Below are positions 1,605-23,070 of a stretch of 64,000 nucleotides of DNA, piece after piece. The translations under genes and the position numbers were made by a program. The notes beneath the pieces are model-generated. The model searched no databases, was not told the origin of the DNA, and saw nothing but the letters and a program-made list of their open reading frames with translations. Positions within the stretch are counted from its first letter, which is position 1; each line of letters starts with the position of its first letter. This DNA comes from Flavobacteriales bacterium (GTDB lineage Bacteria; Bacteroidota; Bacteroidia; Palsa-965), in contig JBEIPA010000002.1 in the NCBI GenBank assembly GCA_040377305.1, positions 32,001 through 96,000 of the forward strand, in the 5' to 3' direction.

Positions 1605-2942
1605 ATGACATCTCCGCTTAATTCGATTTCTCCGGTAGACGGCCGCTATTCCAAGCAAACCGAAAGTCTCCAACAGTATTTTTCAGAAAGTGCGCTGATA
1701 AAATATCGTCTGCTCATTGAAGCCGAATATTTTATTGCATTGAGTTCGGTTGTGCCGCAACTGAAAGATGTTGCATCGAGCAAACACGATGAAATCCGCG
1801 ACAAGGTGTATCGCAATTTTACCGAAGCGAATGCACTCGAAGTGAAAGAGACAGAGAAGACCACCAATCACGATGTGAAAGCGGTTGAGTACTTCGTGAA
1901 AGCGCGTCTGGCTGAAATCGGATTGGAGAAGCATCTTGAGTTCGTTCACTTCGGATTGACTTCGCAAGACATCAACAACACAGCAACACCACTGTTGATT
2001 AAGGACGCACACGAAAAAGTGTTGCTTCCTGCGATCAACGGAATTCTCGATACACTTTCAAAACTGGCGAACGACTGGAAGGACATTCCTATGCTCGCAC
2101 ACACGCACGGGCAACCGGCCTCTCCTACCCGTCTCGGAAAAGAGATTGAAGTGTTTGTTTCGCGTTTGAAAGAACAACTGCGTTTGCTTTCCATGGTTCC
2201 TTTTAGCGGGAAGTTTGGTGGAGCAACCGGTAACTTCAATGCACACCATGTTGCGTATCCGAATCACGACTGGAAAAAATTCGGTGATGAATTTGTGAAG
2301 TCTCTTGGACTGGTTCGTTCACATCCAACAACACAGATTGAACATTACGATAATCTCGCTGCGTACTTCGACGGTCTGAAACGTATCAACACAATTCTTC
2401 TTGACTTGTGTCGCGATATGTGGACATACATTTCCATGAACTACTTCCGTCAGAAAACAAAAGCGGGAGAAATCGGTTCATCGGCCATGCCACACAAAGT
2501 GAATCCGATTGATTTCGAAAACGCGGAAGGCAATCTCGGACTGGCGAATGCAATTTTCGAACACCTCAGTGCAAAACTTCCGATCTCCCGTTTGCAGCGC
2601 GATCTGACTGACTCAACAGTACTTCGCAACGTTGGTGTTCCGATTGCACACACATTGATCTCTTTGAACTCAGTTGCAAAAGGTTTGAGCAAACTTCTTC
2701 TGAATGAAGATGCGCTGAAAGCCGATCTCGAAGCAAACTGGGCAGTTGTTGCTGAAGCAATTCAGACCATTCTTCGTCGCGAAGGATATCCGAAGCCGTA
2801 TGAAGCGCTGAAAGATCTGACGCGTGGGAATAATTCTATCACGAAAGAATCGATTGCGACTTTCATTGAGGGATTGAATGTATCTGCAGAAGTCAAAGCA
2901 GAACTGAAGAAAATTTCACCTTCAAGTTTTACGGGGATTTAA
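1605..2942 (+). CDS. purB: Adenylosuccinate lyase
   Basis: ISPVDGRY, TNHDVKAVEY, HFGLTSQD, GSSAMPHKVNPIDFEN fumarate-lyase signature, SRLQRDLTDS. Confidence 0.97.
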   Translation: MTSPLNSISPVDGRYSKQTESLQQYFSESALIKYRLLIEAEYFIALSSVVPQLKDVASSKHDEIRDKVYRNFTEANALEVKETEKTTNHDVKAVEYFVKARLAEIGLEKHLEFVHFGLTSQDINNTATPLLIKDAHEKVLLPAINGILDTLSKLANDWKDIPMLAHTHGQPASPTRLGKEIEVFVSRLKEQLRLLSMVPFSGKFGGATGNFNAHHVAYPNHDWKKFGDEFVKSLGLVRSHPTTQIEHYDNLAAYFDGLKRINTILLDLCRDMWTYISMNYFRQKTKAGEIGSSAMPHKVNPIDFENAEGNLGLANAIFEHLSAKLPISRLQRDLTDSTVLRNVGVPIAHTLISLNSVAKGLSKLLLNEDALKADLEANWAVVAEAIQTILRREGYPKPYEALKDLTRGNNSITKESIATFIEGLNVSAEVKAELKKISPSSFTGI

Positions 2943-9024: not shown

Positions 9025-9069
9025 TGGTAATTGAAATTGCCACTAATTCCCTTACACAAATTACGCAGT

Positions 9070-12000
9070 ATGAAAACCAGTCACTTATTTCTCGCCTTCT
9101 TCCTAATCTTCGGAATTCAATCAGGTTTCGCGCAAGCACCAAATTATGTTTGGGCAAAACGAATCGGTGGAACTGACATCGAAACAGGAAGGTCCATCGC
9201 CGTCGATGCAGCTGGAAATTCATATACCACTGGACAGTTTCGCGGGACCGTTGACTTTGACCCGGGCCCGGGAACCGCACTGGTTACAACTCTTGGTGTT
9301 GAGGATATTTTCATCACCAAACTGGACAATGCCGGAAACTATGTGTGGAACAGAAGAATTGGTAGTGCCACCTCGGAATACAGCTACTCAATCGCACTCG
9401 ATCCATCCGGAAATATTTACATAACTGGGCAATTCGCCGGCTCGGTAGATTTCGATCCAGGCGCAGGAGTTGCCACTTTAACTTCATTGGGCTCCTGGGA
9501 CGCATATGTTCTCAAACTTGACGTTTCCGGAAATTTCGTTTGGGCAAGACGATTTGGATCAACCTTAGCTGACATTGGACGTACCGTTACTGCAGATGCT
9601 GCTGGAAATGTTTACACAACCGGAACATACACAGGCACTGTAGATTTTGATCCGGGTGCGGGAACGAGCAATCTCGTAGCAGTTGGTGGTCTAGATGTTT
9701 TTATTTCCAAACTAGACGCAGCAGGGAATTTCGTTTGGGCACAATCAGTTGGTGGTACCGGAGCTGAAGAAGGTCGTGGCCTCATCGTTGATGGCACAGG
9801 CAATGTGTTCCTTTGTGGATACTTCGCTGCCACTGCGGATTTCGATCCAGGTGCGGGGACATTCAATTTAACTTCAGCAGGGTCTAACGACATATATCTG
9901 GTGAAATTAAATTCGGCCGGTACTTTTGTATGGGCTGTGAGCATGGGTGGCACACTTAGTGATGCGGCCGTGTCCATCGCACTCGATGCAGTAGGTAATA
10001 TTCAGATGGGCGGCAGTTTTAATGGCACTGCAGACTTTGATCCGGGTGTTGGAGTCAACAACTTGACTTCCGCCGGTGCTGCCGATATGTTTGTTTTAAA
10101 ATTAAACGCCACCGGATCTTTAATCTGGGTGACGCGAACAGGTGGAACAGGTGATGATAATGCCAATCAGATTGTTCTCGACCCTTTAGACAATGTATAT
10201 ATCGGTGGAGGCTTCAATGCTACGGTAGATTTTGACCCGGGTGCAGGAACTGTCAATCTGGTGTCATCCGGTGGCTTTGATATTTCAATTGCCAAACTGG
10301 ATGCATCCGGAAATTACCTATGGGCAGTTCGTATGGGCGGGATATCAAACGAGGCGGCATATTCAATTGCTTATCATTCCTCCGGCACAATTTACTCCAC
10401 AGGTGCTTTCGATGACGTGGTCGACTTCAATCCTGGTGCAGGCGTAGCAAACTTAACTTCAGCTGGTGCTCAAGAAGTGTTTGTTCAAAAGCTTTGTCAA
10501 CTTGCACCACAACCCGGCGTGATAAGCGGACCTTCACCTATCTGTTCCGGTACAACGAATACGTATAGCATTACACCTGTACCTACTGCGACTACTTATA
10601 CTTGGAGCACACCTGCTGGATGGACAGGTACCTCAACAACAAATAGTATTTCAACTACCGCAAGTTTAACGAGTGGAAATGTATCTGTGGTTGCAAACAA
10701 TGCGTGCGGTGCGTCAGTAGTACGTACGTTAAGCGTCACAGTAACTCCTACTCCTACATTTCCTACAGTAATAACCGGCAACACAAATGTCTGTCCCGGC
10801 TCAACAAACATATATACTATCGGATTCGTTAATGGTGCAACACTTTACACATGGACTTATCCTGTGGGCTGGACAGGTCCTGCAACTTCGACGATTCCAA
10901 GTGTGTCTACAACTGCTGGTCCTAACAGCGGTACAATTTCGGTGACTGCAAGTAACTCGTGCGGGTCTGCTGGTCCGCGAACACTCGTGGTAACGGTTAC
11001 TGCAGGACCAACATCTACCGTTTCTTCGCAAACCAATATTTCCTGTAACGGCGGTACAAACGGTGCTGCAACAGTGCTTGCTTCCGGAGGAACATCACCA
11101 TATACTTATGTATGGGCTCCATCAGGCGGAACTGCGGCCACGGCTACAGGTTTAGCTGCGAACACATACACGTGTACAATCACAGATGCAGCCGGCTGCA
11201 CGCGCGCACAAACGGTTACCATCACGCAACCGTCTGCGCTCGCTTCATCCATTTCCTCGCAAACAAATGTTTCCTGTAACGGAGGCGCGAACGGAGCCGC
11301 AACGGTTTCAGTGAGCGGAGGATCTCCTTTGTACACGTATTCATGGGCACCGAGTGGTGGAACAGCTGCAACTACAACAGGAAGATCAGCAGGAACATAT
11401 ACGTGTACAATTACAGATGCAAACGGGTGTACGCGCACACAAACAGTTTCATTAACACAACCCACCGCAATCACTTCTTCAGTTTCATCACAAACAGGTG
11501 CTTCATGCAATGGCGGATCTAATGGAACTGCTACAGTGCTCGCAGGTGGTGGAATCTCTCCTTACACCTATTCCTGGGCGCCAAGCGGCGGAACTGCAGC
11601 AACAGCAACAGGACTTAGCGCAATTACTTACACCTGTACGATTACAGATGCGAACTCATGTACACGTACACAAACAGTTACGATCACACAGCCTACTGCA
11701 ATCACTTCATCCGTTTCTGCACAAACAAATGTGTTGTGTAACGGAGCAAGCACAGGAGCTGCAACAGTTGCTGTTTCAGGCGGAACACCAGGATACACTT
11801 ACTCATGGGCTCCTTCTGGCGGAACTGCTGCAACAACTACAGCACGACCAGCTGGAATCTATACTTGTACAATAACCGATGCAAGCGGCTGCACACGAAC
11901 GCAAACTGTAAACATCACACAACCAACTGCAATCACTTCTTCGATTTCTGCTTCGACCAACGTGACTTGCAATGGAGGAAACAACGGAACTGCAACTGTT

Positions 12001-14175
12001 CTTGCTGGTGGCGGAACTCCAGGTTATACTTACCTCTGGGCTCCGAGCGGAGGAACAACTGCAACTGCAACCGGATTGTCTGCACTGGTGACTTACACGT
12101 GCACAATTACAGATGCAAACGGATGTACTCGCACACAAACAGTAACGTTAACACAACCTGCGGGAATGTCGTCGTCTGTCGCATCACAAGTAAATGTGTC
12201 GTGCAACGGTGGCGCTAATGGTTCTGCAACAATTACGGTAAGCGGTGGAACTGGTCCTTACACGTATGCTTGGTTACCATCTGGCGGAACAACTGCTTCC
12301 ATCACCGGAAGAACTGCAGGTGTTTATACTTGTACAATCACAGATGCTGGTGGATGTACACGCACACAAACAGTTAACATCGCACAACCTTCCGCTATCA
12401 CTTCTGCGGTTTCATCGCAAACCAACGTTTCGTGTAACGGCGGAAACAACGGCGCAGCTACAATTTCTGTTTCAGGTGGAACTCCGGGATACACTTACTT
12501 GTGGGCTCCTTCCGGCGGAACAACAGCATCAATTACCGGAAGAACATTCGGAACGTATACCTGCACAATCACGGATGCAAACGGATGCACAAGCACACAA
12601 ACCGTAAACATCACACAACCTACTGTGCTTACCGCAGCGATTGCTTCTCAGACTGATGTTTCCTGTAATGGAGGAAGTAATGGTGACATCACTGTTACTG
12701 CATCAGGTGGCACTTCAGGTTACACGTACTTATGGTCACCAAGCGGAGGAACAGCTGCAACTGCAACAGGTTTAACTGCGACGACATACTCCTGTCTGAT
12801 TACTGACGCAAACGGATGTTCAACGACACAAACGGCAACGCTCACACAACCGTCTGCAATCAACGCCACCGTTTCTGCACAAACCGATGTAACGTGCAAC
12901 GGAGGAAGCGATGGTTCTGCAACAATGAACGCAACCGGAGGAGTTGGAGGATTCACATTTGCATGGACTCCAACAGGTGGTAATACTGCAACGGCAACTG
13001 GATTGTCGGCACTTATAACATACACCTGCACAATCACGGATGCAAACGGATGTTCAATTGCACAAACTGTTACGATCACAGAACCGAACGCAATTGCCTC
13101 TTCTGTTTCTTCGCAGACAGATCTCACGTGCAACGGTTCTAACGACGGAGCTGCAACGATTACAGCATCAGGTGGAACAGGCTTACTCAGCTATGACTGG
13201 ACTCCGGGAAATCCAACAGGCGATGGAACTGTTAGCGTTACTGGCTTGTCGGCACAAACATGGACGTGCACAATCACAGACGCAAACATGTGTATGCATA
13301 CGCAGGTAGTTACTATCACAGAACCAACCGCTGTAACAACATCTGTGACTTCACAAACTGATCCAACCTGTAATGCAGGCAACGATGGAACTGCTGACAT
13401 TGCTGCTACAGGTGGCGTAGGAAACTTCACATATCTCTGGTCACCTTCGGGTGGAACTGCCGCAACTGCAACAGGACTTGCTGCAGGATCATATACTTGT
13501 CTTGTTACAGATGCAAACGGATGCGCAGCTTCAGAAATTATCACACTTAGTGAGCCTGCCGCAATCACGTCTTCGCAAACTGTAACACTTTGTGCGGGAC
13601 AAACGCTTACAGTTGGTGCATCGACTTACACGGTAACCGGAATTTACAATGAAACACTTACTGCGCTGAACGGTTGCGATAGCACAGTAACAACTGACCT
13701 CACTATTAACGCTTCAATTGATGTGTCCACAACTGTAGTCGGAAACACTGCAACTGCAAACCAGAATGGTGCAACTTACCAGTGGATCGATTGTCTCAAC
13801 AGCAATGCACCACTTGCAGGAGAAACGAATCAGTCATTGACACCGGCAGTGAGTGGAGACTATGCAGTAATTGTAACAGTTGGTTCATGTAGCGACACCA
13901 GTGCGTGCACGAATGTCATCACCGGAATAGATGCGCTTGAAGTAAATAACTTTAGCGTGTATCCGAATCCAACAAACGGAGTCGTTACAATTCAGCTGAA
14001 TACATTCTCACCGAATGCACAGATCGAAGTATTCAACGCACTTGGTCAGATGGTAATCACCGCGAAGCCTACGAACACAGTTACAACGGTTGAACTTCCT
14101 GAAGACAACGGAATCTATCTCGTGCGAGTAACGATCAATGGAATGAGCACAACGCAGAAAGTGATTAAAGAGTAA
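9070..14175 (+). CDS. Large T9SS-secreted adhesin-like protein: 7 SBBP (DFDPG) propeller repeats, 2 PKD-like domains, 11 SprB repeats, T9SS CTD
   Basis: Start moved to ATG 9070 (MKTSHL.. signal peptide); seven DF[DN]PG repeats; eleven CNG...[IV]TDA.[GSM]C repeats; VYPNPTNG...GIYLVRV CTD. Confidence 0.9.
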   Translation: MKTSHLFLAFFLIFGIQSGFAQAPNYVWAKRIGGTDIETGRSIAVDAAGNSYTTGQFRGTVDFDPGPGTALVTTLGVEDIFITKLDNAGNYVWNRRIGSATSEYSYSIALDPSGNIYITGQFAGSVDFDPGAGVATLTSLGSWDAYVLKLDVSGNFVWARRFGSTLADIGRTVTADAAGNVYTTGTYTGTVDFDPGAGTSNLVAVGGLDVFISKLDAAGNFVWAQSVGGTGAEEGRGLIVDGTGNVFLCGYFAATADFDPGAGTFNLTSAGSNDIYLVKLNSAGTFVWAVSMGGTLSDAAVSIALDAVGNIQMGGSFNGTADFDPGVGVNNLTSAGAADMFVLKLNATGSLIWVTRTGGTGDDNANQIVLDPLDNVYIGGGFNATVDFDPGAGTVNLVSSGGFDISIAKLDASGNYLWAVRMGGISNEAAYSIAYHSSGTIYSTGAFDDVVDFNPGAGVANLTSAGAQEVFVQKLCQLAPQPGVISGPSPICSGTTNTYSITPVPTATTYTWSTPAGWTGTSTTNSISTTASLTSGNVSVVANNACGASVVRTLSVTVTPTPTFPTVITGNTNVCPGSTNIYTIGFVNGATLYTWTYPVGWTGPATSTIPSVSTTAGPNSGTISVTASNSCGSAGPRTLVVTVTAGPTSTVSSQTNISCNGGTNGAATVLASGGTSPYTYVWAPSGGTAATATGLAANTYTCTITDAAGCTRAQTVTITQPSALASSISSQTNVSCNGGANGAATVSVSGGSPLYTYSWAPSGGTAATTTGRSAGTYTCTITDANGCTRTQTVSLTQPTAITSSVSSQTGASCNGGSNGTATVLAGGGISPYTYSWAPSGGTAATATGLSAITYTCTITDANSCTRTQTVTITQPTAITSSVSAQTNVLCNGASTGAATVAVSGGTPGYTYSWAPSGGTAATTTARPAGIYTCTITDASGCTRTQTVNITQPTAITSSISASTNVTCNGGNNGTATVLAGGGTPGYTYLWAPSGGTTATATGLSALVTYTCTITDANGCTRTQTVTLTQPAGMSSSVASQVNVSCNGGANGSATITVSGGTGPYTYAWLPSGGTTASITGRTAGVYTCTITDAGGCTRTQTVNIAQPSAITSAVSSQTNVSCNGGNNGAATISVSGGTPGYTYLWAPSGGTTASITGRTFGTYTCTITDANGCTSTQTVNITQPTVLTAAIASQTDVSCNGGSNGDITVTASGGTSGYTYLWSPSGGTAATATGLTATTYSCLITDANGCSTTQTATLTQPSAINATVSAQTDVTCNGGSDGSATMNATGGVGGFTFAWTPTGGNTATATGLSALITYTCTITDANGCSIAQTVTITEPNAIASSVSSQTDLTCNGSNDGAATITASGGTGLLSYDWTPGNPTGDGTVSVTGLSAQTWTCTITDANMCMHTQVVTITEPTAVTTSVTSQTDPTCNAGNDGTADIAATGGVGNFTYLWSPSGGTAATATGLAAGSYTCLVTDANGCAASEIITLSEPAAITSSQTVTLCAGQTLTVGASTYTVTGIYNETLTALNGCDSTVTTDLTINASIDVSTTVVGNTATANQNGATYQWIDCLNSNAPLAGETNQSLTPAVSGDYAVIVTVGSCSDTSACTNVITGIDALEVNNFSVYPNPTNGVVTIQLNTFSPNAQIEVFNALGQMVITAKPTNTVTTVELPEDNGIYLVRVTINGMSTTQKVIKE

Positions 14176-14204
14176 TCTCAACAAATCCGCATAGCCCGTA
14201 TGAG

Positions 14205-14235
14205 AAGGGAAGATCGAAAGGTCTTCCCTTTTTTT
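14205..14235 (+). terminator. Rho-independent terminator (GAAA tetraloop)
   Basis: AAGGGAAGATC-GAAA-GGTCTTCCCTT plus T tract. Confidence 0.85.
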
Positions 14236-14237
14236 GT

Positions 14238-14305
14238 CCGTTCCTGAACGAAATCGGCTGTTCCTGAACGAAATCTACCCATTGCCTGAGCTCTGACTAA
14301 GTTTG
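14238..14305 (+). promoter_or_regulatory. Putative LytTR-box promoter
   Basis: CCGTTCCTGAA (14238) and CTGTTCCTGAA (14258); GTTCCTGAACGAAATC is an exact direct repeat; perfect TAAGTTTG at 14298. Confidence 0.7.
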
Positions 14306-14328
14306 AAGAAGCAATAATCCATCTCAGC

Positions 14329-16701
14329 ATGAAAAAGATTCTACTATTCACCACAATGTTGTTTAGCTCTGCCATTGCGAACGCGCAAACATTCGGCTGG
14401 GCAGGAAGTCTAGGTAGCGGAAGCAACGAAGAAGGACGTGGTGTTGCCGTTGACGCCAGCGGAAATGTTTACTCAGTTGGTTATTTTACTGGTTCAGGCG
14501 ACTTTGATCCGGGTCCGGGTGTTACGACTCTAACGTCTGGTGGTTCTAACGACGTTTATGTTTCAAAACTGGATGCGTCAGGGAATTTTGTGTGGGCAAT
14601 ACGAATGGGAGGCACCGGGCCTCAAACCGGAGTTGCCATTGCTTTGGATAATTCAGGCAACGTTTACATCACCGGAAACTTCAATAACACAATTGACATG
14701 GATCCGGGTGCAGGTGTTGTAAATATTACTTCACTGGGAGCACAGGATATTTTCATTGGTAAATATGATCCGTCGGGAAACCATGTTTGGTCGAAGCGCT
14801 TTGGAAGTGCATTTCATGAGGCGGCGGCCAATATCACTGTTGACGCTTCGGGCAATGTCCTGACCTGCGGTTTGTTTACCGGAACCACAGATTTTGACCC
14901 GGGCGCTGGTACAGTCAATCTTACTGCAAGTACAGTAAGTGATGGGTACATTTCCAAATTGGATGCGAATGGTAACTATGTTTGGGCAAAACAAATTGGA
15001 TTGAGCGGATCGAATACTCCTACTTCAATAAAGTGTGATGGCTCTGGAAATATTTACCTCACCGGTGGATATGAGAGCACCACCGACTTTGATCCGGGCG
15101 CAGGATCGTATCCAATAACTTCTGCCGGATCAGTGGATATATTTTTTCTGAAGCTGGATACCAATGGCGACTTCAGCTGGGCTGGAAGCATGGGCGGAAC
15201 TTCGTATGACCTCGGACGTTCCCTTGCGATTGATGCAGGCGGCAATGTCGTAATGACCGGCGAATTTCAAGGAACTGCAGATCTAGATCCCACCGTTGGA
15301 GTCTACAATCTAACTTCCTTCGCGATCAAGGACATTTTCATTGCAAAATTTAATCCTGCTACGGCTACCTTCATATGGTCGGTAATGGTTGGCGAGACCT
15401 ATAATGACATTGGCTATAGCATCGCTACAGATGCCAGCAATAATATTTATCTGACTGGTGATTTTACCGGTACAGTTGATTTTGATCCAGGTGCAGGAAG
15501 CGTTTTACTTACATCTGACGGCAACCAAAAAGATTGTTTTATCCTCAAGCTCGATGCCTCCGGAAATTATATGTGGGCTGGCAAATTCGGTTCTTCATTC
15601 TTAGCTGATGCTGCCTATTCCATTTATGTAGACGCTTCCACAAATATTTACACCACAGGATCTTATCAGGACGTGGTTGATTTTGACCCGGGAGTTGGTA
15701 CAAACATTCTCACTTCGGGCGGTCAGGTAGACGTATACGTTCTGAAGTTAGAACAATGCGTTGCACCAGTAGCACCTATGAATACAACACCTGCAGCATC
15801 ATTAACTGTGTGCGGACCCGGTTCCACTACACTCACAGCAAGTGGCTCCGGCACCTTGGGTTGGTATTCTGCTTCTACAGGAGGAACCTATCTGGGTGGA
15901 GGCACAAGTTTCACAACTCCTGTTCTAAGCAATGACACGGTTTACTATGTACAAGACAGCACGTGTGTTGACGGACCACGCACAGCAGTTACTGTTACGT
16001 TCAATCCGGCAATGAGCACCTCTGTTTCTTCCCAAACGAATGTTACGTGCTTTGGAGGAATTGATGGCAACGCAGGAGTAAGCGTGAGTGGCGGAACACC
16101 AAACTACTCGTATCTATGGACACCGTCCGGTGGAACGCAACCTGTAGAATTTAACATGAGTGCAGGAACATACACCTGCACAGTTACCGATGCTGCAGGT
16201 TGTACCACTGCGCAAATTGTTACGATCACAGAGCCAGGTGCAATTGACGTTACGACAACACTGAACGGCAACATGCTTTCTGCAAATCAGAATGGCGCAA
16301 CGTATCAGTGGATCGATTGTCTCAACGGTAACGCACCAGTTGCAGGAGAAACCAATCAGACCTTTACTCCACAAGCGAACGGAGACTATGCAGTAATTGT
16401 AACTGTTGGTCCGTGCAGCGATACCAGTGCTTGCACAAATGTGATCACAGGAATCGACGCGCATGATAACGTTGCATTCAACCTGTATCCGAATCCGACA
16501 AACGGAATCGTTACCATTCAGCTGAACACATTCTCACCGAATGCACAGATCGAAGTATTCAATGCACTTGGTCAGATGGTAATCACTGCGAAACCAACAA
16601 ACACAGTTACTACAGTTGAACTTCCTAAAGAAAATGGAATCTATCTCGTGCGTATAACATGTGATGGAGTGAGCAGCACAACGCGTGTGGTGAAAGAATA
16701 G
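14329..16701 (+). CDS. T9SS-secreted SBBP-repeat propeller protein with Ig-like domain, one SprB repeat and T9SS CTD (paralog of 9070-14175)
   Basis: Signal peptide; seven DFDPG-like repeats; WYSASTGG...YYVQ Ig-like module; LYPNPTNG CTD nearly identical to the upstream paralog. Confidence 0.9.
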   Translation: MKKILLFTTMLFSSAIANAQTFGWAGSLGSGSNEEGRGVAVDASGNVYSVGYFTGSGDFDPGPGVTTLTSGGSNDVYVSKLDASGNFVWAIRMGGTGPQTGVAIALDNSGNVYITGNFNNTIDMDPGAGVVNITSLGAQDIFIGKYDPSGNHVWSKRFGSAFHEAAANITVDASGNVLTCGLFTGTTDFDPGAGTVNLTASTVSDGYISKLDANGNYVWAKQIGLSGSNTPTSIKCDGSGNIYLTGGYESTTDFDPGAGSYPITSAGSVDIFFLKLDTNGDFSWAGSMGGTSYDLGRSLAIDAGGNVVMTGEFQGTADLDPTVGVYNLTSFAIKDIFIAKFNPATATFIWSVMVGETYNDIGYSIATDASNNIYLTGDFTGTVDFDPGAGSVLLTSDGNQKDCFILKLDASGNYMWAGKFGSSFLADAAYSIYVDASTNIYTTGSYQDVVDFDPGVGTNILTSGGQVDVYVLKLEQCVAPVAPMNTTPAASLTVCGPGSTTLTASGSGTLGWYSASTGGTYLGGGTSFTTPVLSNDTVYYVQDSTCVDGPRTAVTVTFNPAMSTSVSSQTNVTCFGGIDGNAGVSVSGGTPNYSYLWTPSGGTQPVEFNMSAGTYTCTVTDAAGCTTAQIVTITEPGAIDVTTTLNGNMLSANQNGATYQWIDCLNGNAPVAGETNQTFTPQANGDYAVIVTVGPCSDTSACTNVITGIDAHDNVAFNLYPNPTNGIVTIQLNTFSPNAQIEVFNALGQMVITAKPTNTVTTVELPKENGIYLVRITCDGVSSTTRVVKE

Positions 16702-16726
16702 TTTCTAAACAGATATTCCCCCTCTG

Positions 16727-16759
16727 AAAGGAAAGATCGAAAGGTCTTTCCTTTTTTTG
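16727..16759 (+). terminator. Rho-independent terminator; contains the left copy of a 27-bp direct repeat (16733-16759)
   Basis: AAAGGAAAGATC-GAAA-GGTCTTTCCTTTTTTT. Confidence 0.85.
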
Positions 16760-16783
16760 CTAAGTGCAACCGTAACTTATCAT

Positions 16784-17434
16784 TTAACGTTTCTTCTTCT
16801 TCAACGGCTTAAAATACGGTCGTGATTTTACCGTTACAGGGGCACTCGCAATGTAATTTGTCCCGGTACTTCCTGTCACAATTGATAGCTCTGCATATGT
16901 TGTGGTACCAGACGACACGGAATTACCATATCCATAAACCACAGAATAAGATTCTGATCTCTTTGTAGGAGGATATTTTTCAGTCGCTAAACTTTCCGTT
17001 CGCAACTTCGCGTAAGCTGCCTTAAAATCTTCAAAAAAATCTTCAAGTACAAACTGAGTCTTTCCATCAATCACATCTAAGTGCTTAGGAGAAGAATCCG
17101 GATGACAACAACGTGAAGTTAGTAAGACGGAATCGCCCGTTCGGTACTGATGAAGTAATGGTCCCCGCAGTTGCTCAAATATCCATTGTGCATTCTTCTG
17201 ATACCACTCATTTTCAAACAATGTTTTAAGCGAACGTTCAAATCTATTTTTTGATTCTCCGTACTTGTTATGCGGTGAGGAATCTGAGAATGAACCTAAA
17301 TACTCAATTCCTGTACAAATTGCCATGAATGCTTGAAAGTCAATTTTTGAATCAATTAATGATTGAACCAACGATACAATCACCTCGCCGTGTCCGATAG
17401 CATTAGTCTCGTACTTAATCACCAATTTGTTCAT
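16784..17434 (-). CDS. Putative HEPN-like (RxxxxH) protein
   Basis: ATG at 17434 (TTG 17452 alternative); helical AFMAICTGIEYLG...RFERSLKTLF...IFEQLRGPLLHQY with R-x4-H; low-complexity Ser/Thr/Gly tail ending KKKKR. Confidence 0.55.
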   Translation of the reverse strand: MNKLVIKYETNAIGHGEVIVSLVQSLIDSKIDFQAFMAICTGIEYLGSFSDSSPHNKYGESKNRFERSLKTLFENEWYQKNAQWIFEQLRGPLLHQYRTGDSVLLTSRCCHPDSSPKHLDVIDGKTQFVLEDFFEDFKAAYAKLRTESLATEKYPPTKRSESYSVVYGYGNSVSSGTTTYAELSIVTGSTGTNYIASAPVTVKSRPYFKPLKKKKR

Positions 17435-17485
17435 GAATTCGAATATTCTCAAGAAAATAAATATAGTTGCGGTCTATTAATGAGG

Positions 17486-18229
17486 TTACACCAGCTTATT
17501 GTCGAGCGCATATTTTTTCCCGAGAGGAGTGATCCAGATTGCCTCCGAAACTCCAGTAAAACTAATCAGCTTTTCTGATTTCGCTTGATCAAGCGCCACA
17601 TCTATCATCGTTCGAGACATCCCTGGAATCATAGAACGAACCTCACTGTACACAACAAACTCTCGCTGACCATGTTCAAAAATTTGAATCATCACTCGCA
17701 TAACCTCCATCAATGTATCGTGCTGCGGCGTTTTACTTCCTACTGCAACTGGTGAGAATGGCTTGTAACCTATTTCTGGCTTTTTAAACAATGGGGCATC
17801 ATGTATTTTCCTCAACAGTTCATCTGACGCATATTCATAATCATCATCCTTTGAATAATTTATGTACAGTTTAGATTTCAAAAATGTCGGAACTTCAGTT
17901 GTACCACTTTGACGTATAACAGGAATAATTTTACTCTCACTAATACTCTTCATTAGACTTGAAGTAATTATCATCTTTTCATACCCAACGCCACCACTAC
18001 CAGCATTCGCTTTCTCAACATACTTACTCGTACATATCATCAATATATAGTCTGCCTTGGCAAGATTGCTTTCCATAAAATGAGGGACGTCATCACCTGC
18101 GGTTAAATCCCACTGATCCAAAGTTGCATCAACTCCGTTCTGTCTTAAGCGGGTTGCCAATTCTAGAACCCACTTTTTATGATCAAGTGAATCGTGCGAA
18201 TAAGAAACAAATACTTTGGGGATTTTCAT
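17486..18229 (-). CDS. TIR/SEFIR domain protein with C-terminal winged-helix-like domain
   Basis: ATG at 18229; PKVFVSYSHDS..HKKWV..LATRLR.NGVD..LDQWDL..G; GGVGYE with conserved Glu; KIIPVIR; tail ITPLGKKY resembles a wHTH wing. Confidence 0.85.
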   Translation of the reverse strand: MKIPKVFVSYSHDSLDHKKWVLELATRLRQNGVDATLDQWDLTAGDDVPHFMESNLAKADYILMICTSKYVEKANAGSGGVGYEKMIITSSLMKSISESKIIPVIRQSGTTEVPTFLKSKLYINYSKDDDYEYASDELLRKIHDAPLFKKPEIGYKPFSPVAVGSKTPQHDTLMEVMRVMIQIFEHGQREFVVYSEVRSMIPGMSRTMIDVALDQAKSEKLISFTGVSEAIWITPLGKKYALDNKLV

Positions 18230-18281
18230 ATTGGATAAATATATTCTAACACGAAATAATTTGACGACAGTCAAAAACGAG

Positions 18282-18641
18282 TTATTGCGGCAAAGATGTC
18301 TTCCATGTATTTATCTCAAACAGAACTGCACAATCACCTACCTCGTTCCACATAGTTTTTTGCTTACCCCAGAAGTAAAAGTGATTAGTCGTTCCGTCTG
18401 CATTCTTGCTCTCAGTATTAGTTCCCGTGCCGGAATATATAATAACATGATCGCCAGACTTAACCTTCTTTGGTTTGAACCAAAATGCATCTTTCTGAGA
18501 ATTGGAAATCGTCGAAGCGCTAGAATAAACTGTGTCAAAAATTATGTAGTAGACAAGATCAGCGTCCTCAAGAACCCTTAAGTGCAGTCGCTCCTTGCTA
18601 GCTACCCCACGATCAGCAATTTGTATGATATCTAATTTCAT
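18282..18641 (-). CDS. Small all-beta protein, lamin-tail-domain (LTD)-like
   Basis: 119 aa; ERLHL...FWF....VKSGDHVIIYSGTG......FYFWG....MWNEVGDCAVL resembles the LTD pattern; no signal peptide. Confidence 0.6.
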   Translation of the reverse strand: MKLDIIQIADRGVASKERLHLRVLEDADLVYYIIFDTVYSSASTISNSQKDAFWFKPKKVKSGDHVIIYSGTGTNTESKNADGTTNHFYFWGKQKTMWNEVGDCAVLFEINTWKTSLPQ

Positions 18642-19102
18642 TTTTTGACCGCTCTCCCAATTGAGGCACTAATTGTTAATACTAATCCAATTATGAGACA
18701 TAAGATACCATGAATACTATTGGCGTCCCAAAAATAAGGTGCTAGCCCGAATATTGCTCCCCCCAACCCAACACCCACGCCGAACAGAATTTCCATTGCC
18801 CTGTCAGCTTTCAACTTTTCACCCAAAACTGACGCCTTTTTATCGGCTTCATGAAAACTAGTCACATAGCTTTTTAAGTTTTCCTTTTCATTTTCAGCTT
18901 CCTCGAGCATCTCTAACAACATTTTCTGAGTGCCCGTTTGAGAAAGTTCCTCGTCGGTAAGTTGTCTGCGAACATTACTGAGTGCCTGTCTTCTACCAGA
19001 AGCAGGAGCACTAATTTGTTCAGCTGATGCAAGAGTTTCCTTGCCTGAACTAAGATCTGGTGAAATAGGAGGCTCTTCGGGATTAGTGTCGTTCTTGGAC
19101 AT
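18638..19102 (-). CDS. Coiled-coil protein with two C-terminal transmembrane helices
   Basis: 154 aa; charged helical middle, then ILFGVGVGLGGAIFGLA and GILCLIIGLVLTISASIG; ATGA overlap with the downstream gene. Confidence 0.75.
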   Translation of the reverse strand: MSKNDTNPEEPPISPDLSSGKETLASAEQISAPASGRRQALSNVRRQLTDEELSQTGTQKMLLEMLEEAENEKENLKSYVTSFHEADKKASVLGEKLKADRAMEILFGVGVGLGGAIFGLAPYFWDANSIHGILCLIIGLVLTISASIGRAVKK

Positions 19103-19289
19103 AGTTGACGATAATTCACACCTAAATGTAATAAAGGCATGGAACTATAAGTAAAGATAGAAATCTGACCTAAACAACCAATTCACTTACCGTCCACACT
19201 CAAAATCTTAACAGACCTTTCCTTCGAATTCTTTAACATTCTACTACTTGAATTCAGATAGCCAAGACAATTGTTCCTTTTGATGGAAT

Positions 19290-19493
19290 ATGTTCATCTC
19301 CGGCTTCTCCATCGTTCGCAATGCCATCAAATACGATTACCCGATCGAGGAAGCCATTCGTTCTATACTTCCGGTGTGCGATGAGCTTGTGATTGTTGCG
19401 CAGAAATCTTAAAGACAATGTGCGAAAGATTGTTCATTCCGCGGACCACGTAAAATGAGGAGCTAGTCTTGATTGAAGATGACTCATTGCGAG
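19290..19493 (+). pseudogene. Decayed duplicate of the 5' end of the glycosyltransferase gene at 20759
   Basis: 19290-19409 aligns base by base with 20759-20878 (MFISGFSIVRNAIKYDYPI.EAIRSILP.CDE), then an in-frame stop; remnant GATGACTCATTGCG (DDSLR) near 19478-19491. Confidence 0.85.
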
Positions 19494-19518
19494 TCACAAT
19501 AAACCTTCGCTACGTTGG

Positions 19519-19545
19519 AAGATCGAAAGGTCTTTCCTTTTTTTG
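19519..19545 (+). repeat. Right copy of the 27-bp direct repeat (terminator-derived)
   Basis: Identical to 16733-16759. Confidence 0.9.
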
Positions 19546-19552
19546 TTGTAAA

Positions 19553-20707
19553 TCATCGTTCACTCGGATTCTTAATATCATTCTCCTTCGCCGGATCTTT
19601 CACAAAAGGAAATACAAACTGTTTCGCAAATCCTTTTGGAAATTTCACATCACCTAAGCCAGTGCTTTCCGGCCATGTGTCTTTCATCGGATAATAGGTT
19701 CCGAAGATCATATCGATGAATGGAAAATGAATCGCGAAATTTTTGTCGTACGCTTTCGGATCAGCAGAGTGATGCCAGTGGTGATATTGAGGTGTCACAA
19801 AAACATACTTGAGAAATCCGAAGTTGATTCGTGTGTTTGAATGAGCAAGGACCGCCTGAATCGCTACGATCACAATGTATGTATTGAACACGGCCGGACT
19901 GAATCCGCAGATGTACAACGGAAGAAACGAAACAGCTCGCACCGCTATCATGTCGATAAAATGTGTTCGTGATCCGGCAAGCCAATCGAGGTCCTTTGTG
20001 GAATGGTGTACCGAATGAAATCTCCACAGGAAGGGAATTTTATGAAAGAAGAAATGTCCGGTCCACTGAAACAGATCAGAAACAAGCAGCGCCAGAAATA
20101 ATTGCGGCACAAACCAAATTCCTTGCACCCACGACTGAAATCCGCTCAAACCAACGCCGGAGAAAAGTGCAACAGCAGGTAATTGCACAACCACTCCTGT
20201 TACCTGAATCAACAGGTGACTGATCACGAAATACATCAGGTCTGTTCTCCACTCTGCATGGAACTTGGATTGATCGAGTCGCTTGGGCAAGAACAACTCA
20301 ATCGGAATAAAGATGAATGCAGAAATCAGAATGTCTAAAAGCAACCAGTCCAGTCCAAGTGTAAATGCTTTTGACTCCACACCATCGTGATCGGGTAGTC
20401 CAGAACCAAGCAGAATTGTTCCACCAATGATGAGCACTGCGATAAAACCCATTCTGGTTTTCTTACTCAGCATAAAACTAGTGATGGCGAAAAGGAAGGA
20501 CAGTGCAAGTACACCAAGCAAGCTCCATTTGATGAGATTAGGTTTGTACAGTTTGCGGAAATCTGCCGTAGTGAGGTACTCCGGAAAGTATGCGCACACC
20601 GTAATACCGAAGCACACAATTGCCAAAAATATTGCGAGGTAACCAGAGATTTTTCCTTCGCCGATTTTCAGGCGGGACGGTTTGTTTTCCTTATTAATAT
20701 GATCCAT
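19553..20707 (-). CDS. Sterol desaturase / fatty acid hydroxylase family membrane protein
   Basis: His boxes GHFFFH, WRFHSVHHS, AHSN, TPQYHHWHH, KNFA; multiple TM helices. Confidence 0.9.
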   Translation of the reverse strand: MDHINKENKPSRLKIGEGKISGYLAIFLAIVCFGITVCAYFPEYLTTADFRKLYKPNLIKWSLLGVLALSFLFAITSFMLSKKTRMGFIAVLIIGGTILLGSGLPDHDGVESKAFTLGLDWLLLDILISAFIFIPIELFLPKRLDQSKFHAEWRTDLMYFVISHLLIQVTGVVVQLPAVALFSGVGLSGFQSWVQGIWFVPQLFLALLVSDLFQWTGHFFFHKIPFLWRFHSVHHSTKDLDWLAGSRTHFIDMIAVRAVSFLPLYICGFSPAVFNTYIVIVAIQAVLAHSNTRINFGFLKYVFVTPQYHHWHHSADPKAYDKNFAIHFPFIDMIFGTYYPMKDTWPESTGLGDVKFPKGFAKQFVFPFVKDPAKENDIKNPSER

Positions 20708-20758
20708 CGACTCAAATATAACAGGTAAGTTGCCTTTTGAGTACTTTTATCCGGACCT

Positions 20759-21631
20759 ATGTTCATCTCCGGCTTCTCCATTGTCCGCAATGCCATCAAA
20801 TACGATTATCCGATCGTGGAAGCCATTCGTTCTATACTTCCGCTGTGCGATGAATTCGTGATTGCTGTTGGAAAATCGGACGACGATACATTGAAGATGA
20901 TCAAGAAACTGGACGAGCCGAAAATCAGAATCATTGAAACAGTGTGGGACGATTCATTGCGCGAAGGAGGAAAAGTACTCGCCGATGAAACCAACAAAGC
21001 CTACGATGCAATTTCTGAGAAAGCAGATTGGTGCTTTTACATCCAGGGCGATGAAGTGATTCACGAGAAATTTCTGCCGGCGATTAAAGCAGGAATGCAG
21101 CAGTGGAAAGACGACAAGAATGTGGAAGGTTTACTTTTCGATTACACGCACTTCTACGGTTCGTACGATTACGTGGGTGATTCCCGAAAATGGTATCGCA
21201 AAGAAATTCGCATTGTGCGCAAGAACAAAACCATTCGATCCTACAAAGACGCGCAGGGGTTTCGTCACAATGATAATTCCAAGCTGAAAGTAAAAGCAAT
21301 CGATGCGAGTGTGTATCACTACGGCTGGGTAAAACCACCGGAAGCGCAACAAGCGAAACAACAATCGTTTCACAAAATGTGGCACGATGATCAATGGATG
21401 AAACAAAATGTTCCGGCTGTTGAGAAATTCGATTATTCGCAGATTGATTCACTGGCGAAATTCACAGGCACGCACCCGCTCGTCATGCATGATCGGATTC
21501 AGAGAATGAACTGGAAGTTTGCATTTGATCCGACGAGAAAGAAGTGGGGAATGAAGATGCGTCTGCTTATGTTCGTTGAGAAAACGACTGGAGTGCGCAT
21601 CGGTGAGTACAAAAACTACGAACTATTGTAA
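20759..21631 (+). CDS. Glycosyltransferase family 2-like protein
   Basis: ISGFSIVRNA, SDDDT, WCFYIQGDEV (DxD-like), VYHYGWVK. Confidence 0.85.
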   Translation: MFISGFSIVRNAIKYDYPIVEAIRSILPLCDEFVIAVGKSDDDTLKMIKKLDEPKIRIIETVWDDSLREGGKVLADETNKAYDAISEKADWCFYIQGDEVIHEKFLPAIKAGMQQWKDDKNVEGLLFDYTHFYGSYDYVGDSRKWYRKEIRIVRKNKTIRSYKDAQGFRHNDNSKLKVKAIDASVYHYGWVKPPEAQQAKQQSFHKMWHDDQWMKQNVPAVEKFDYSQIDSLAKFTGTHPLVMHDRIQRMNWKFAFDPTRKKWGMKMRLLMFVEKTTGVRIGEYKNYELL

Positions 21632-21633
21632 GT

Positions 21634-21794
21634 CTGCGACGCTTTACACGGAGGAACGGCGTAACAGCGAAACGGGGTTTTATAGTGTTTCCCACGAGAA
21701 ACGGAGGATCGCAAGGCGATTAGTACGCAGTGCCTCGTGGGCTTAAATTGTAGCTGTTCTCCGTTTCGTTGTGCCGCCGTGTAAAGCGCCGCAG
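21634..21794. repeat. About 160-bp nested hairpin element between convergent genes
   Basis: Arms CTGCGACGCTTTACACGG / CCGTGTAAAGCGCCGCAG; inner stems CAGCGAAACGGGG/CTCCGTTTCGTTG, CCCACGAG/CTCGTGGG, ATCGC/GCGAT. Confidence 0.7.
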
Positions 21795-21802
21795 GCATCC
21801 AA

Positions 21803-22306
21803 CTATTTTTCGAGTTCCCGCAAGTAAGCGATCAAATCCGTTCTCGGCATCTTCCCCTCAAAACCAACCTGCCTGAACATCGTAATAAGTTGCCCACGAT
21901 GAAACGTGCTGTGATTCATCAGATGCATTGTAATGTTTCCAACAGATTCTTTGTACTCCGTTCCATCCATCGCTTTAAACGTGATGATTTCGCTCCAGTA
22001 AGATTCCGGCCTTCCATCAAAATGCTCTGCATATGTAATCGACGTATTCATCAACGCAGGAATTGCTTCTTCCGGTTTCATATTCTTGCTGGGCCAATCC
22101 GTTGGAGAAACTCCTTGCAATCGCGAAAGCCAGACATATTGCCCATCCGCAAGATGAAAAATAGTTTTGCGTATGCTATTAAAACTGCTGATGATTTCTT
22201 TGTCAAGAAGTTTCTCATCCTTGTCAATTAGAAAATCGGCAATGCCCTTGTTTGCCCACACGTTGTAGTTGACGTAACGCGAGAGATTTTCAGAATGTTC
22301 ACTCAT
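21803..22306 (-). CDS. DinB/YfiT family protein
   Basis: YNVWAN, SIRKTIFHL, W..RL, HLMNHSTFHRGQL. Confidence 0.9.
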   Translation of the reverse strand: MSEHSENLSRYVNYNVWANKGIADFLIDKDEKLLDKEIISSFNSIRKTIFHLADGQYVWLSRLQGVSPTDWPSKNMKPEEAIPALMNTSITYAEHFDGRPESYWSEIITFKAMDGTEYKESVGNITMHLMNHSTFHRGQLITMFRQVGFEGKMPRTDLIAYLRELEK

Positions 22307-22347
22307 AGCATTTGAGAATTATGAATTGCTAATTACGAATCAAACAT

Positions 22348-23070
22348 CTACTCCCATCCTGAAGCAAGCACATCAACCAAATGCATCACCTGCATGGGCT
22401 TGTTCTGCTTTTTCATATAACCTTCGAGATGAAGAAGACAAGACGAATCTGTCGACACCAAAAAGTCAGCACCCGTTTCTTCGGCATGCTTTAGTTTTTC
22501 CTCTGCCATACCCACTGCAATAGCTTCATGTTTTACGGCGAAACTACCACCGAAGCCACAACAAACATCGGAGTGACTCATCTCGCGAACTTCCAATCCC
22601 CGAACTTTGGAAAGCAGCAAGCGCGGCTCTCTGTGGATACCATACTCACGCAAACCGCCGCATGAATCGTGAAAGGTTGCAACACCATCGAGCTTAGCAC
22701 CGAGATCAGTAATCTTCAGAATATTCACGAGGAAATCAGAAAACTCAAAGATGTTCTTCTGCACCATACGACACTGATTGTGCAGAACAGAATTCTGAAA
22801 AACCTCTCCGTAGTAATTTCTCACAAATCCAGTACACGATGCTGATGGCGACACGATGTAACGATCAGCCTGAAATTCTTTAATGAACTTCTCTCCTACT
22901 TCCTTCGTGTGATCCCAATATCCCGCATTAAATGCAGGCTGACCACAGCACGTTTGATCAGGATTGTAGTTTACTCCACAACCAACGCGCTCCAATACCT
23001 TGACCATGTTCATCGCGGCGTTCGGATAAAATTGGTCTACAAAACAGGGTATAAATAAATCTACGATCAT
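22348..23070 (-). CDS. LutA/LldE-like CCG-domain Fe-S protein
   Basis: LFIPCFVDQ, QTCCGQPAFNAG, FHDSC, CCGFGGSF, DSSCLLHL. Confidence 0.88.
   Translation of the reverse strand: MIVDLFIPCFVDQFYPNAAMNMVKVLERVGCGVNYNPDQTCCGQPAFNAGYWDHTKEVGEKFIKEFQADRYIVSPSASCTGFVRNYYGEVFQNSVLHNQCRMVQKNIFEFSDFLVNILKITDLGAKLDGVATFHDSCGGLREYGIHREPRLLLSKVRGLEVREMSHSDVCCGFGGSFAVKHEAIAVGMAEEKLKHAEETGADFLVSTDSSCLLHLEGYMKKQNKPMQVMHLVDVLASGWE

Follow-up and report, generated by a model that had tools for sequence, protein, structure and literature searches.

Two cargo alleles in tandem in a variable purB–glycosyltransferase interval of a Flavobacteriales bacterium

Introduction

How can two different sets of genes come to stand one behind the other between copies of the same flanking sequences, when no recombinase is encoded beside them? 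This question is raised by a 64,000-nucleotide stretch of DNA from a Flavobacteriales bacterium (assembly GCA_040377305.1, contig JBEIPA010000002.1, positions 32,001 to 96,000), henceforth called the window, which belongs to a genome (G000) of 5.18 Mb in 60 contigs. An initial annotation, made by a model from the sequence alone, described an order of parts that is indeed present: a 27-nt terminator repeat T (copy T1, 16733–16759), four genes of low G+C content, a broken start of a glycosyltransferase (GT) gene, an identical T (copy T2, 19519–19545), a desaturase gene and the intact GT gene. It took this order for an exchangeable slot that had been filled twice, recently and from a diverged donor. 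Here we report that the interval is a hotspot for accessory genes, that the window holds two of its alleles in tandem, that one of these also occurs on its own, and that identity between the broken and the intact GT drops abruptly at about nt 110 of the gene. The layout likely stems from ordinary gene swapping between related bacteria and not from a new kind of mobile element.

Results

A hotspot between purB and the glycosyltransferase gene

In 43 of the 55 distinct related loci in which purB is visible, the end of this gene lies at most 200 nt from the GT start, while in the window it lies 17.8 kb upstream of GT. The true anchors of the hotspot are therefore purB and GT, and the gene for an SBBP-type secreted protein next to T1, initially taken for the left anchor, has to give way to purB. 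GT has a match in 25 of the 26 other genomes of the genus (genus tallies, like the set of 38 relatives used below, include the unpublished genome G012, on which no claim rests alone). Close orthologues of the desaturase (86–92%) are present in three of these 26 genomes, each time in this same interval. The desaturase is the longer-standing cargo and the four-gene cassette is the lineage-specific part.

Nine distinct loci have a GT at least 84% identical at the amino acid level; L051, with only 147 nt upstream, was left out. The remaining eight (GT 84–92%) display six arrangements, none of them that of the window, in agreement with the expectation that relatives carry alternative cargo between T and GT. 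These are purB–GT (L052, L059), SBBP gene–T–GT (G010, G014), purB–T–355-aa gene–GT (L055), T–198-aa gene–desaturase–668-aa gene–GT (G015), T–170-aa gene–693-aa gene–desaturase–184-aa gene–GT (G013, same as L054) and T–112-aa gene–RhuM–GT stub–VOC–desaturase–GT (G007). The desaturase and a related gene of about 680 aa occur in opposite order in G015 (L031) and G013 (L033/L054), in the same slot.

The T–desaturase allele was found standing alone, as had been anticipated. An independent metagenome contig of 174 nt from another study (X2) contains the stop of a gene, the full T1-type hairpin, 15 other letters and the end of the desaturase gene, the latter with 5 differences in 95 nt (95%). As its spacer differs, it is not a fresh excision product of the allele in the window.

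No recombinase or transposase match was obtained among the open reading frames (ORFs) from purB to GT scanned in Pfam, and none of the seven tyrosine-recombinase matches of the genome lies on the window's contig. The interval thus combines two of the features expected of a hotspot without mobile elements, namely accessory genes that differ among relatives while the core genes on either side stay the same, and the lack of integrases and transposases. The two alleles do stand in tandem, with no recombinase gene found nearby.

T is the ordinary terminator of the locus

The two identical 27-mers lie 2786 nt apart and are the only exact copies in the genome. A third copy with one mismatch, T0 (14210–14236), had been missed by the initial annotation, and no others were found in the 5.18-Mb genome with up to five mismatches. 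T0 and T1 fold into GAAA-capped hairpins before a run of T residues (−20.2 and −16.8 kcal/mol; z −3.8 and −3.4, respectively); T2, from which the outer left arm is absent, folds at −8.6 kcal/mol (z −0.5). Scans for sigma-70 promoters and terminators gave chance level only, and a search for structured RNAs in Rfam gave no match across 14000–22500.

T is matched in 6 of the 27 genomes of the genus, beside SBBP gene ends or in this interval wherever the context was read, with two copies in G014. Its first 25 bases are exact in G015 and L055, although the identity of their GT genes to that of the window is only 86% and 79%, respectively, at the DNA level. T is the ordinary terminator of the locus. 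Its conservation across species means that two alleles of the locus would carry the same T at any age, and the identity of T1 and T2 was therefore discarded as a clock. T was likewise rejected as a dispersed repeat or attachment site, since there are only three copies, all in this locus.

The same terminator hairpin also stands 3′ of an unrelated 848-aa gene in another Bacteroidota family (L142, L145, L148, L152, L154 and L155), where the gene downstream of the hairpin varies as well; judging by eye, the 848-aa gene resembles one for a ribonucleotide reductase.

A glycosyltransferase remnant with two degrees of decay

The broken GT start, henceforth the stub, matches the intact gene at two different levels. 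Its first 110 nt, from 19290, are 91.8% identical to 20758–20867 (E 7e-38, spacing 1469 nt), while identity over nt 110–229 is about 50%; the matches per 25 nt are 24, 24, 23, 21, 15, 11, 15, 11 and 12. The reading frame is broken by a TAA at codon 41 and by frameshifts. A banded alignment keeps the distal part in register with GT to about nt 229, abutting T2 (score 22.5, reached in 0 of 1500 shuffles; the best of 72 off-register control windows scores −6.5). Over nt 1–108, the stub is nearer to the genome's own GT (91.7%) than to that of any of the 16 closest relatives listed, the best of which reaches 88.9%. Up to codon 32, four of the six changed codons are synonymous variants present in 11–18 of the 38 relatives. 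On this comparison, the proximal stub resembles a closely related functional allele that has decayed somewhat, and the distal stub an old pseudogene. Identity of 92% followed by about 50% suggests that the joint is probably old and that the 5′ half was probably renewed by later allele exchange.

Ahead of the stub ATG, homology to the promoter region of GT is at chance level, its score being equalled in 1451 of 3000 shuffles. Among 104 distinct GT loci in which a distant donor of the distal stub was sought, none gave an in-register match clearly above the off-register controls. Homology-facilitated illegitimate recombination combines a single homologous anchor with an illegitimate joint, in many cases at microhomology. 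At the joint (19518/19519), a 4-nt GAAA common to GT nt ~229–232 and the left arm of T would fit if two later changes are allowed, decay having blurred the joint.

Among the 98 related loci with at least 300 nt upstream of GT, two (L083 and G007) have a copy of the GT 5′ end above the reverse-strand control. L083 (1570–2478), from a distant relative (GT 67%), bears a similar scar on a smaller scale: purB is followed by a 32-nt GT 5′ stub, then by a Bro-N gene and the intact GT. The decayed stub of G007 (L034:1607–1746), about 75% like that genome's own GT, has a RhuM-family gene on one side and a VOC gene on the other and is followed by the same desaturase, in the order stub–VOC–desaturase–GT.

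A probable old joint followed by allele exchange

The layout reads as T, cargo 1 and GT nt 1–229, followed by T, cargo 2 and the whole GT, so that a single novel joint (19518/19519) suffices where two interleaved duplications had initially been invoked. On balance, we lean towards a variable purB–GT slot in which two cargo alleles stand in tandem through one old illegitimate joint and later homologous allele exchange on both sides.

In such a course of events, the old joint would have fused about codon 76 of a GT copy to the terminator, giving stub–T–desaturase–GT. One possible route is that chromosomal DNA of a relative paired by homology at one end, within the SBBP gene or GT, and formed an illegitimate joint at the other end; another is that a small circle bearing that joint integrated through the GT start. 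Both routes would yield the identical product and are indistinguishable here. The leftover GT start could then have served as a spare right-hand anchor, a T–cassette–GT allele recombining into its first ~110 nt. Crossovers with T–desaturase alleles, or selection on T2 as a terminator, may have kept T2 current, while the distal stub, having no partner in any allele, would have decayed. RecA-type recombination after DNA uptake should be sufficient for all of this, making a dedicated recombinase unnecessary. We also count in favour of this course the low G+C content of the cassette and its SEFIR gene without a full-length match in 26 genomes, as against a desaturase found in the slot in three, as well as the decayed stub that G007 carries in a similar order, stub–X–desaturase–GT.

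Several observations weigh against it. When gaps are left free, the alignment of the distal stub is matched in 38 of 2000 shuffles, and a second test of this type gives no separation from off-register controls; the extent of the stub past about 19400 is thus supported but weaker. In the first 36 codons, five of the nine changed codons are non-synonymous, and V20E and A36V occur in none of the 38 relatives, indicating that plain decay also contributes. Stubs in two of 98 related loci imply that stacking is rare. The T–cassette–GT allele was seen nowhere on its own, and the X2 contig has a depth of 2.7 and is unphasable with other pieces. The genome has genes for ComEC and DprA, but both are also matched in 10–11 of 14 control genomes and therefore offer no proof of competence. 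Finally, homology-facilitated illegitimate recombination usually deletes recipient DNA and does not duplicate it.

Alternative explanations

The initial annotation favoured a single recent event, in which a T–cassette–GT fragment from a diverged donor was added ahead of a resident T–desaturase–GT. The identical T copies, the free T–desaturase allele in X2, the low-G+C, lineage-specific cassette and the 92% identity of the proximal stub would all fit. Such an event predicts even divergence along the stub, however, and the distal half is at about 50% with stops and frameshifts, a decay exceeding the third-position divergence to other species (55–69% identity). As T is conserved across species, being shared by G015 and L055, and the best match of the proximal stub is the GT of the genome itself, both the recency and the diverged donor appear unlikely.

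Equally doubtful is the converse proposal that the cassette allele is the resident and that the desaturase unit, 1469 nt from stub to GT, is a passively mobile cassette entering GT via a duplicated 5′ end. The decayed part of the stub does adjoin the desaturase cargo, a polarity seen by eye in several 3′-end stubs of the genome too, and the arrangements of L083 and G007 can be read in the same way. The desaturase, however, occupies the slot without a stub in G015, G013 and X2, the contigs of X1, the likely source run, show neither a circle nor an excision joint, and it is the cassette that is lineage-specific.

Tandem duplication of T, cargo and GT start within one chromosome, with later replacement of the first cargo by the cassette, would agree with the stub being closest to the genome's own GT, with the two T copies in G014 and with the tandem SBBP–T paralogues already present at the locus. 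Indeed, window positions 9031–16759 hold two tandem genes for SBBP-type secreted proteins that have a 178-nt 3′ end in common (83%) and are followed by the same terminator; relatives differ in how many such genes they carry and in how large these are. No remnant of a desaturase or of the region upstream of GT was detected ahead of the stub, however, an equal number of later steps would be called for, and the identity step is left unexplained unless renewal is added. We consider this origin improbable.

A still weaker case can be made for T as an attachment site, the 2786-nt T-to-T segment being a non-autonomous integrative element or integron-like cassette served by a recombinase in trans. The exact 27-nt direct repeats, the empty site in X2 and the defence-like cargo are features of such elements, and one of the seven tyrosine-recombinase matches lies beside a cassette-like array on contig C19 (C19:49499–56685: an integrase, then about ten small same-strand genes). 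T is confined to the locus, however, serving there as a normal terminator of SBBP genes or purB; an unrelated gene in another family is followed by the same hairpin; the cassette spacers have no match to the C19 array, nor is there a match in Rfam; and a segment that carries a decayed host GT start is better explained by a chromosomal origin. Excision between the T copies, suggested by the initial annotation, is possible in principle. No joint of T1 to the desaturase was seen in the X1 contigs, and since contigs drop rare variants, excision at a low level may still occur. We regard an apparent joint of 16652 to 19517 in X1 as artefactual, caused by the paralogous SBBP end and T0, which lie on a 2551-nt contig spanning 14007–16557. 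Taken together, a role of T in site-specific integration seems very improbable.

We see hardly any room for an assembly chimera of two strains in a metagenome bin, to which an apparently mixed sample and two alleles in tandem might point, because separate X1 contigs (16533–17941 and 17913–22500; even depth of 11–14) cross T1, the stub, T2 and GT with no difference from the window, the repeats are 27 nt long or diverged, and misjoining cannot make a decayed stub. X1, being the likely source run, is not independent evidence, and X3 and X4 contain almost none of the stretch.

The cargo and its surroundings

The features of the locus are listed in Table 1. Type IX secretion tails encoded by neighbouring genes suggest a host from the Bacteroidota. 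The four minus-strand ORFs of the cassette, all within 16760–19289, have a G+C content of 39.2%, compared with 45.1% for the genome. The TIR/SEFIR protein matches the PADLOC model bSEFIR (E 1.5e-80, 270 bits) over model positions 26–212 of 412; in Pfam, TIR_2 scores 77 bits and SEFIR 58 bits. A full-length match to its gene was found in none of the 26 other genomes of the genus, the only hit being a partial one of 40% in G013.

Homologues of the 216-aa protein, 54% identical, lie inside type I restriction islands of G014 and G010. Its family comprises 183 representatives, and E44, R90 and H95 are invariant in the 50 aligned members. The resulting R90-x4-H95 pattern recalls that of HEPN nucleases and, as far as motif and neighbourhood go, suggests a candidate stand-alone HEPN-type defence gene. 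No Pfam family was matched in more than one of these 50 members, no solved relative was found, and matches in the atlas were all below 0.9.

Of 400 other genomes of the phylum, five have a match to the 119-aa protein (best identity 46%), whose one good relative has other neighbours. No restriction or modification family was found among the five cargo genes. As a fixed block, the cassette was not found in the 26 genomes of the genus by DNA search; plasmid searches returned one weak match and otherwise nothing, and no repeats were found between the cassette genes. The label 'defence-like' is fair, the defence role itself being putative.

Table 1. Features of the locus, in window coordinates
Feature	Position	Strand	Remarks
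purB (adenylosuccinate lyase)	1605..2942	+	Pfam Lyase_1 and ASL_C; conserved left anchor of the hotspot
SBBP/SprB secreted-protein gene, 1714 aa	upstream of T0		T0 follows
T0, third copy of T, 1 mismatch	14210..14236	+	3′ of the 1714-aa SBBP/SprB gene; hairpin −20.2 kcal/mol
790-aa SBBP beta-propeller protein with type IX secretion C-terminal domain	14329..16701	+	T1 is its terminator
T1, 27-nt part of a GAAA-capped intrinsic-terminator hairpin and T run	16733..16759	+	Full hairpin 16726–16755
216-aa protein	16784..17434	−	No Pfam family
TIR/SEFIR-domain protein	17486..18229	−	247 aa from ATG, or 262 aa from TTG at 18274
119-aa protein	18282..18641	−	No named family
154-aa protein	18638..19102	−	Two C-terminal hydrophobic stretches, as read from the sequence; no named family
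GT 5′ stub (pseudogene)	19290..19518	+	Stop and frameshifts; reaches T2
T2, identical 27-mer without outer left hairpin arm	19519..19545	+	Left edge is the probable single novel joint
384-aa sterol desaturase/fatty acid hydroxylase family protein	19553..20707	−	Pfam FA_hydroxylase
Intact 290-aa GT2-like glycosyltransferase	20759..21631	+	Pfam Glyco_tranf_2_4, weak, below cut-off; conserved right anchor

Some further sequences of the locus deserve mention. A TACTTTTA motif at 20745–20752, ahead of the GT start, occurs likewise in six related loci with T upstream, and is missing where purB abuts GT and ahead of the stub; it resembles the −7 promoter box of Bacteroidota. Between GT and dinB, a REP-like inverted repeat (21626–21802) has matches on several further contigs, with many loose contig ends converging on it, and similar repeats are found at some of the short 3′-end duplications described below. 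Lastly, positions 19174–19192 have a 19-nt exact match inside a secreted-protein gene on contig C60 (E 0.003), possibly by chance.

Duplicated gene ends elsewhere in the genome

Among 3535 ORFs of at least 150 aa, 19 are followed downstream by a non-paralogous copy of their own 3′ end, compared with none in an upstream-copy control and two and none in mid-gene controls. Copies of 5′ ends number 5, against 3 in the control, so that only the 3′ class is clearly enriched. Twenty such 3′ cases were aligned, of which ten enclose more than 500 nt (one beside a doubtful ORF) and the rest are short tandem repeats. The cargo of the ten or so inserts (C4:82374–83100, C43:9596–10300, C52:172433–173400, C15:24536–25200, C22:19736–25300, C56:11500–15122, C60:132000–132900, C49:166718–168250, C6:61609–76767 and C53:26240–27043) includes two RelB–ParE toxin–antitoxin pairs, a Y1 transposase, a PD-(D/E)XK_3 gene, secreted proteins and a 15-kb island. 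For the pair on C43, two of four relatives have an empty site and none has the pair at that site. For the insert on C22, all five relatives have a single copy of the gene end, which would fit an empty site, the next gene falling outside those loci.

It is conceivable, if unlikely, that this lineage captures genes genome-wide without an integrase, leaving duplicated gene ends that act as decoy anchors or adapters and let alleles stack. Were this so, adapters would turn one exchangeable slot into two, defence and membrane-lipid alleles would stack instead of replacing each other, and the graded stub would be a fossil record of repeated cargo swaps through the adapter.

Discussion: comparison with known systems

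The locus shares with the hotspots free of mobile elements described by Oliveira et al. (2017, PMC5635113) a high turnover of cargo between two conserved genes without a detectable integrase or transposase. Their model, however, is a double crossover with replacement, whereas here two alleles are kept in tandem, with one extra illegitimate joint; in addition, our evidence comes from across the species of a genus and not from within one species.

In insertion with long target duplication (Furuta et al. 2010, PMC2853133), translation starts or stops are often spanned by the repeats. The likeness extends to an insert below 20 kb, a direct repeat of more than 30 nt, the absence of another mobile element and a target gene left intact: stub and GT provide 110 nt at 92% around 1469 nt, while the 27-nt T falls below the 30-nt threshold. 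An empty site is seen for the T-to-T unit in the one short X2 contig and was not seen for the stub-to-GT unit (cassette–GT). On the other hand, that mechanism was described for restriction–modification genes, and the restriction and modification genes that the 2010 survey took as a criterion are both absent from the cargo here. Moreover, our locus has two interleaved repeats, and identity along that of GT declines from 92% to about 50% instead of staying near-complete.

For the effector–immunity arrays of the type VI secretion system in V. cholerae, homology-facilitated illegitimate recombination followed by homologous spread has been proposed (Kirchberger et al. 2017, PMC5361080). There, too, a new allele is thought to be added at a conserved anchor without an integrase, part of the resident being kept downstream. 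In that case the resident effector is displaced while selection retains the immunity genes, whereas our locus retains a useless GT stub as a scar and unrelated cargoes. In pneumococcus, transformation also gives rise to merodiploids by tandem duplication (Johnston et al. 2013, PMC3784515), and DNA uptake there likewise leaves a locus with two alleles one behind the other; those duplications, however, span 100–900 kb and arise via pre-existing insertion sequence repeats, compared with 1.5–2.8 kb and no such repeats here.

With regard to the cargo, the N-terminal TIR/SEFIR domain that matches PADLOC bSEFIR resembles that of the bacterial anti-phage gene SEFIR of Millman et al. (2022, bioRxiv 10.1101/2022.05.11.491447). 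The window protein differs in covering half of the 412-position model, in its different, shorter C-terminus and in scoring higher for TIR_2 than for SEFIR in Pfam, bearing in mind that the criterion of an N-terminal SEFIR hit above the TIR hit was applied with HHsearch in that study, whereas the scores here are from Pfam and PADLOC.

Integrons and integrative elements are set apart from the locus by the lack of a cognate integrase and of attC-like repeats and by T not being reused at other loci. On the features compared, the locus is a member of the integrase-free hotspot class and not a restriction–modification insertion, an integron cassette or an integrative element. Judged by titles and the beginnings of abstracts, in a search that mostly did not extend to subscription papers, no closer direct precedent was found. 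As it stands, the locus is one more example of known mechanisms and will not surprise the specialist. Should stubs prove to be reused anchors, they would provide a testable rule for the growth of hotspots and defence islands without mobile elements. The locus is nevertheless a small, clear example of an integrase-free hotspot that adds cargo rather than replacing it, with the scar still readable, and it extends insertion with long target duplication beyond restriction–modification cargo and into a Bacteroidota lineage.

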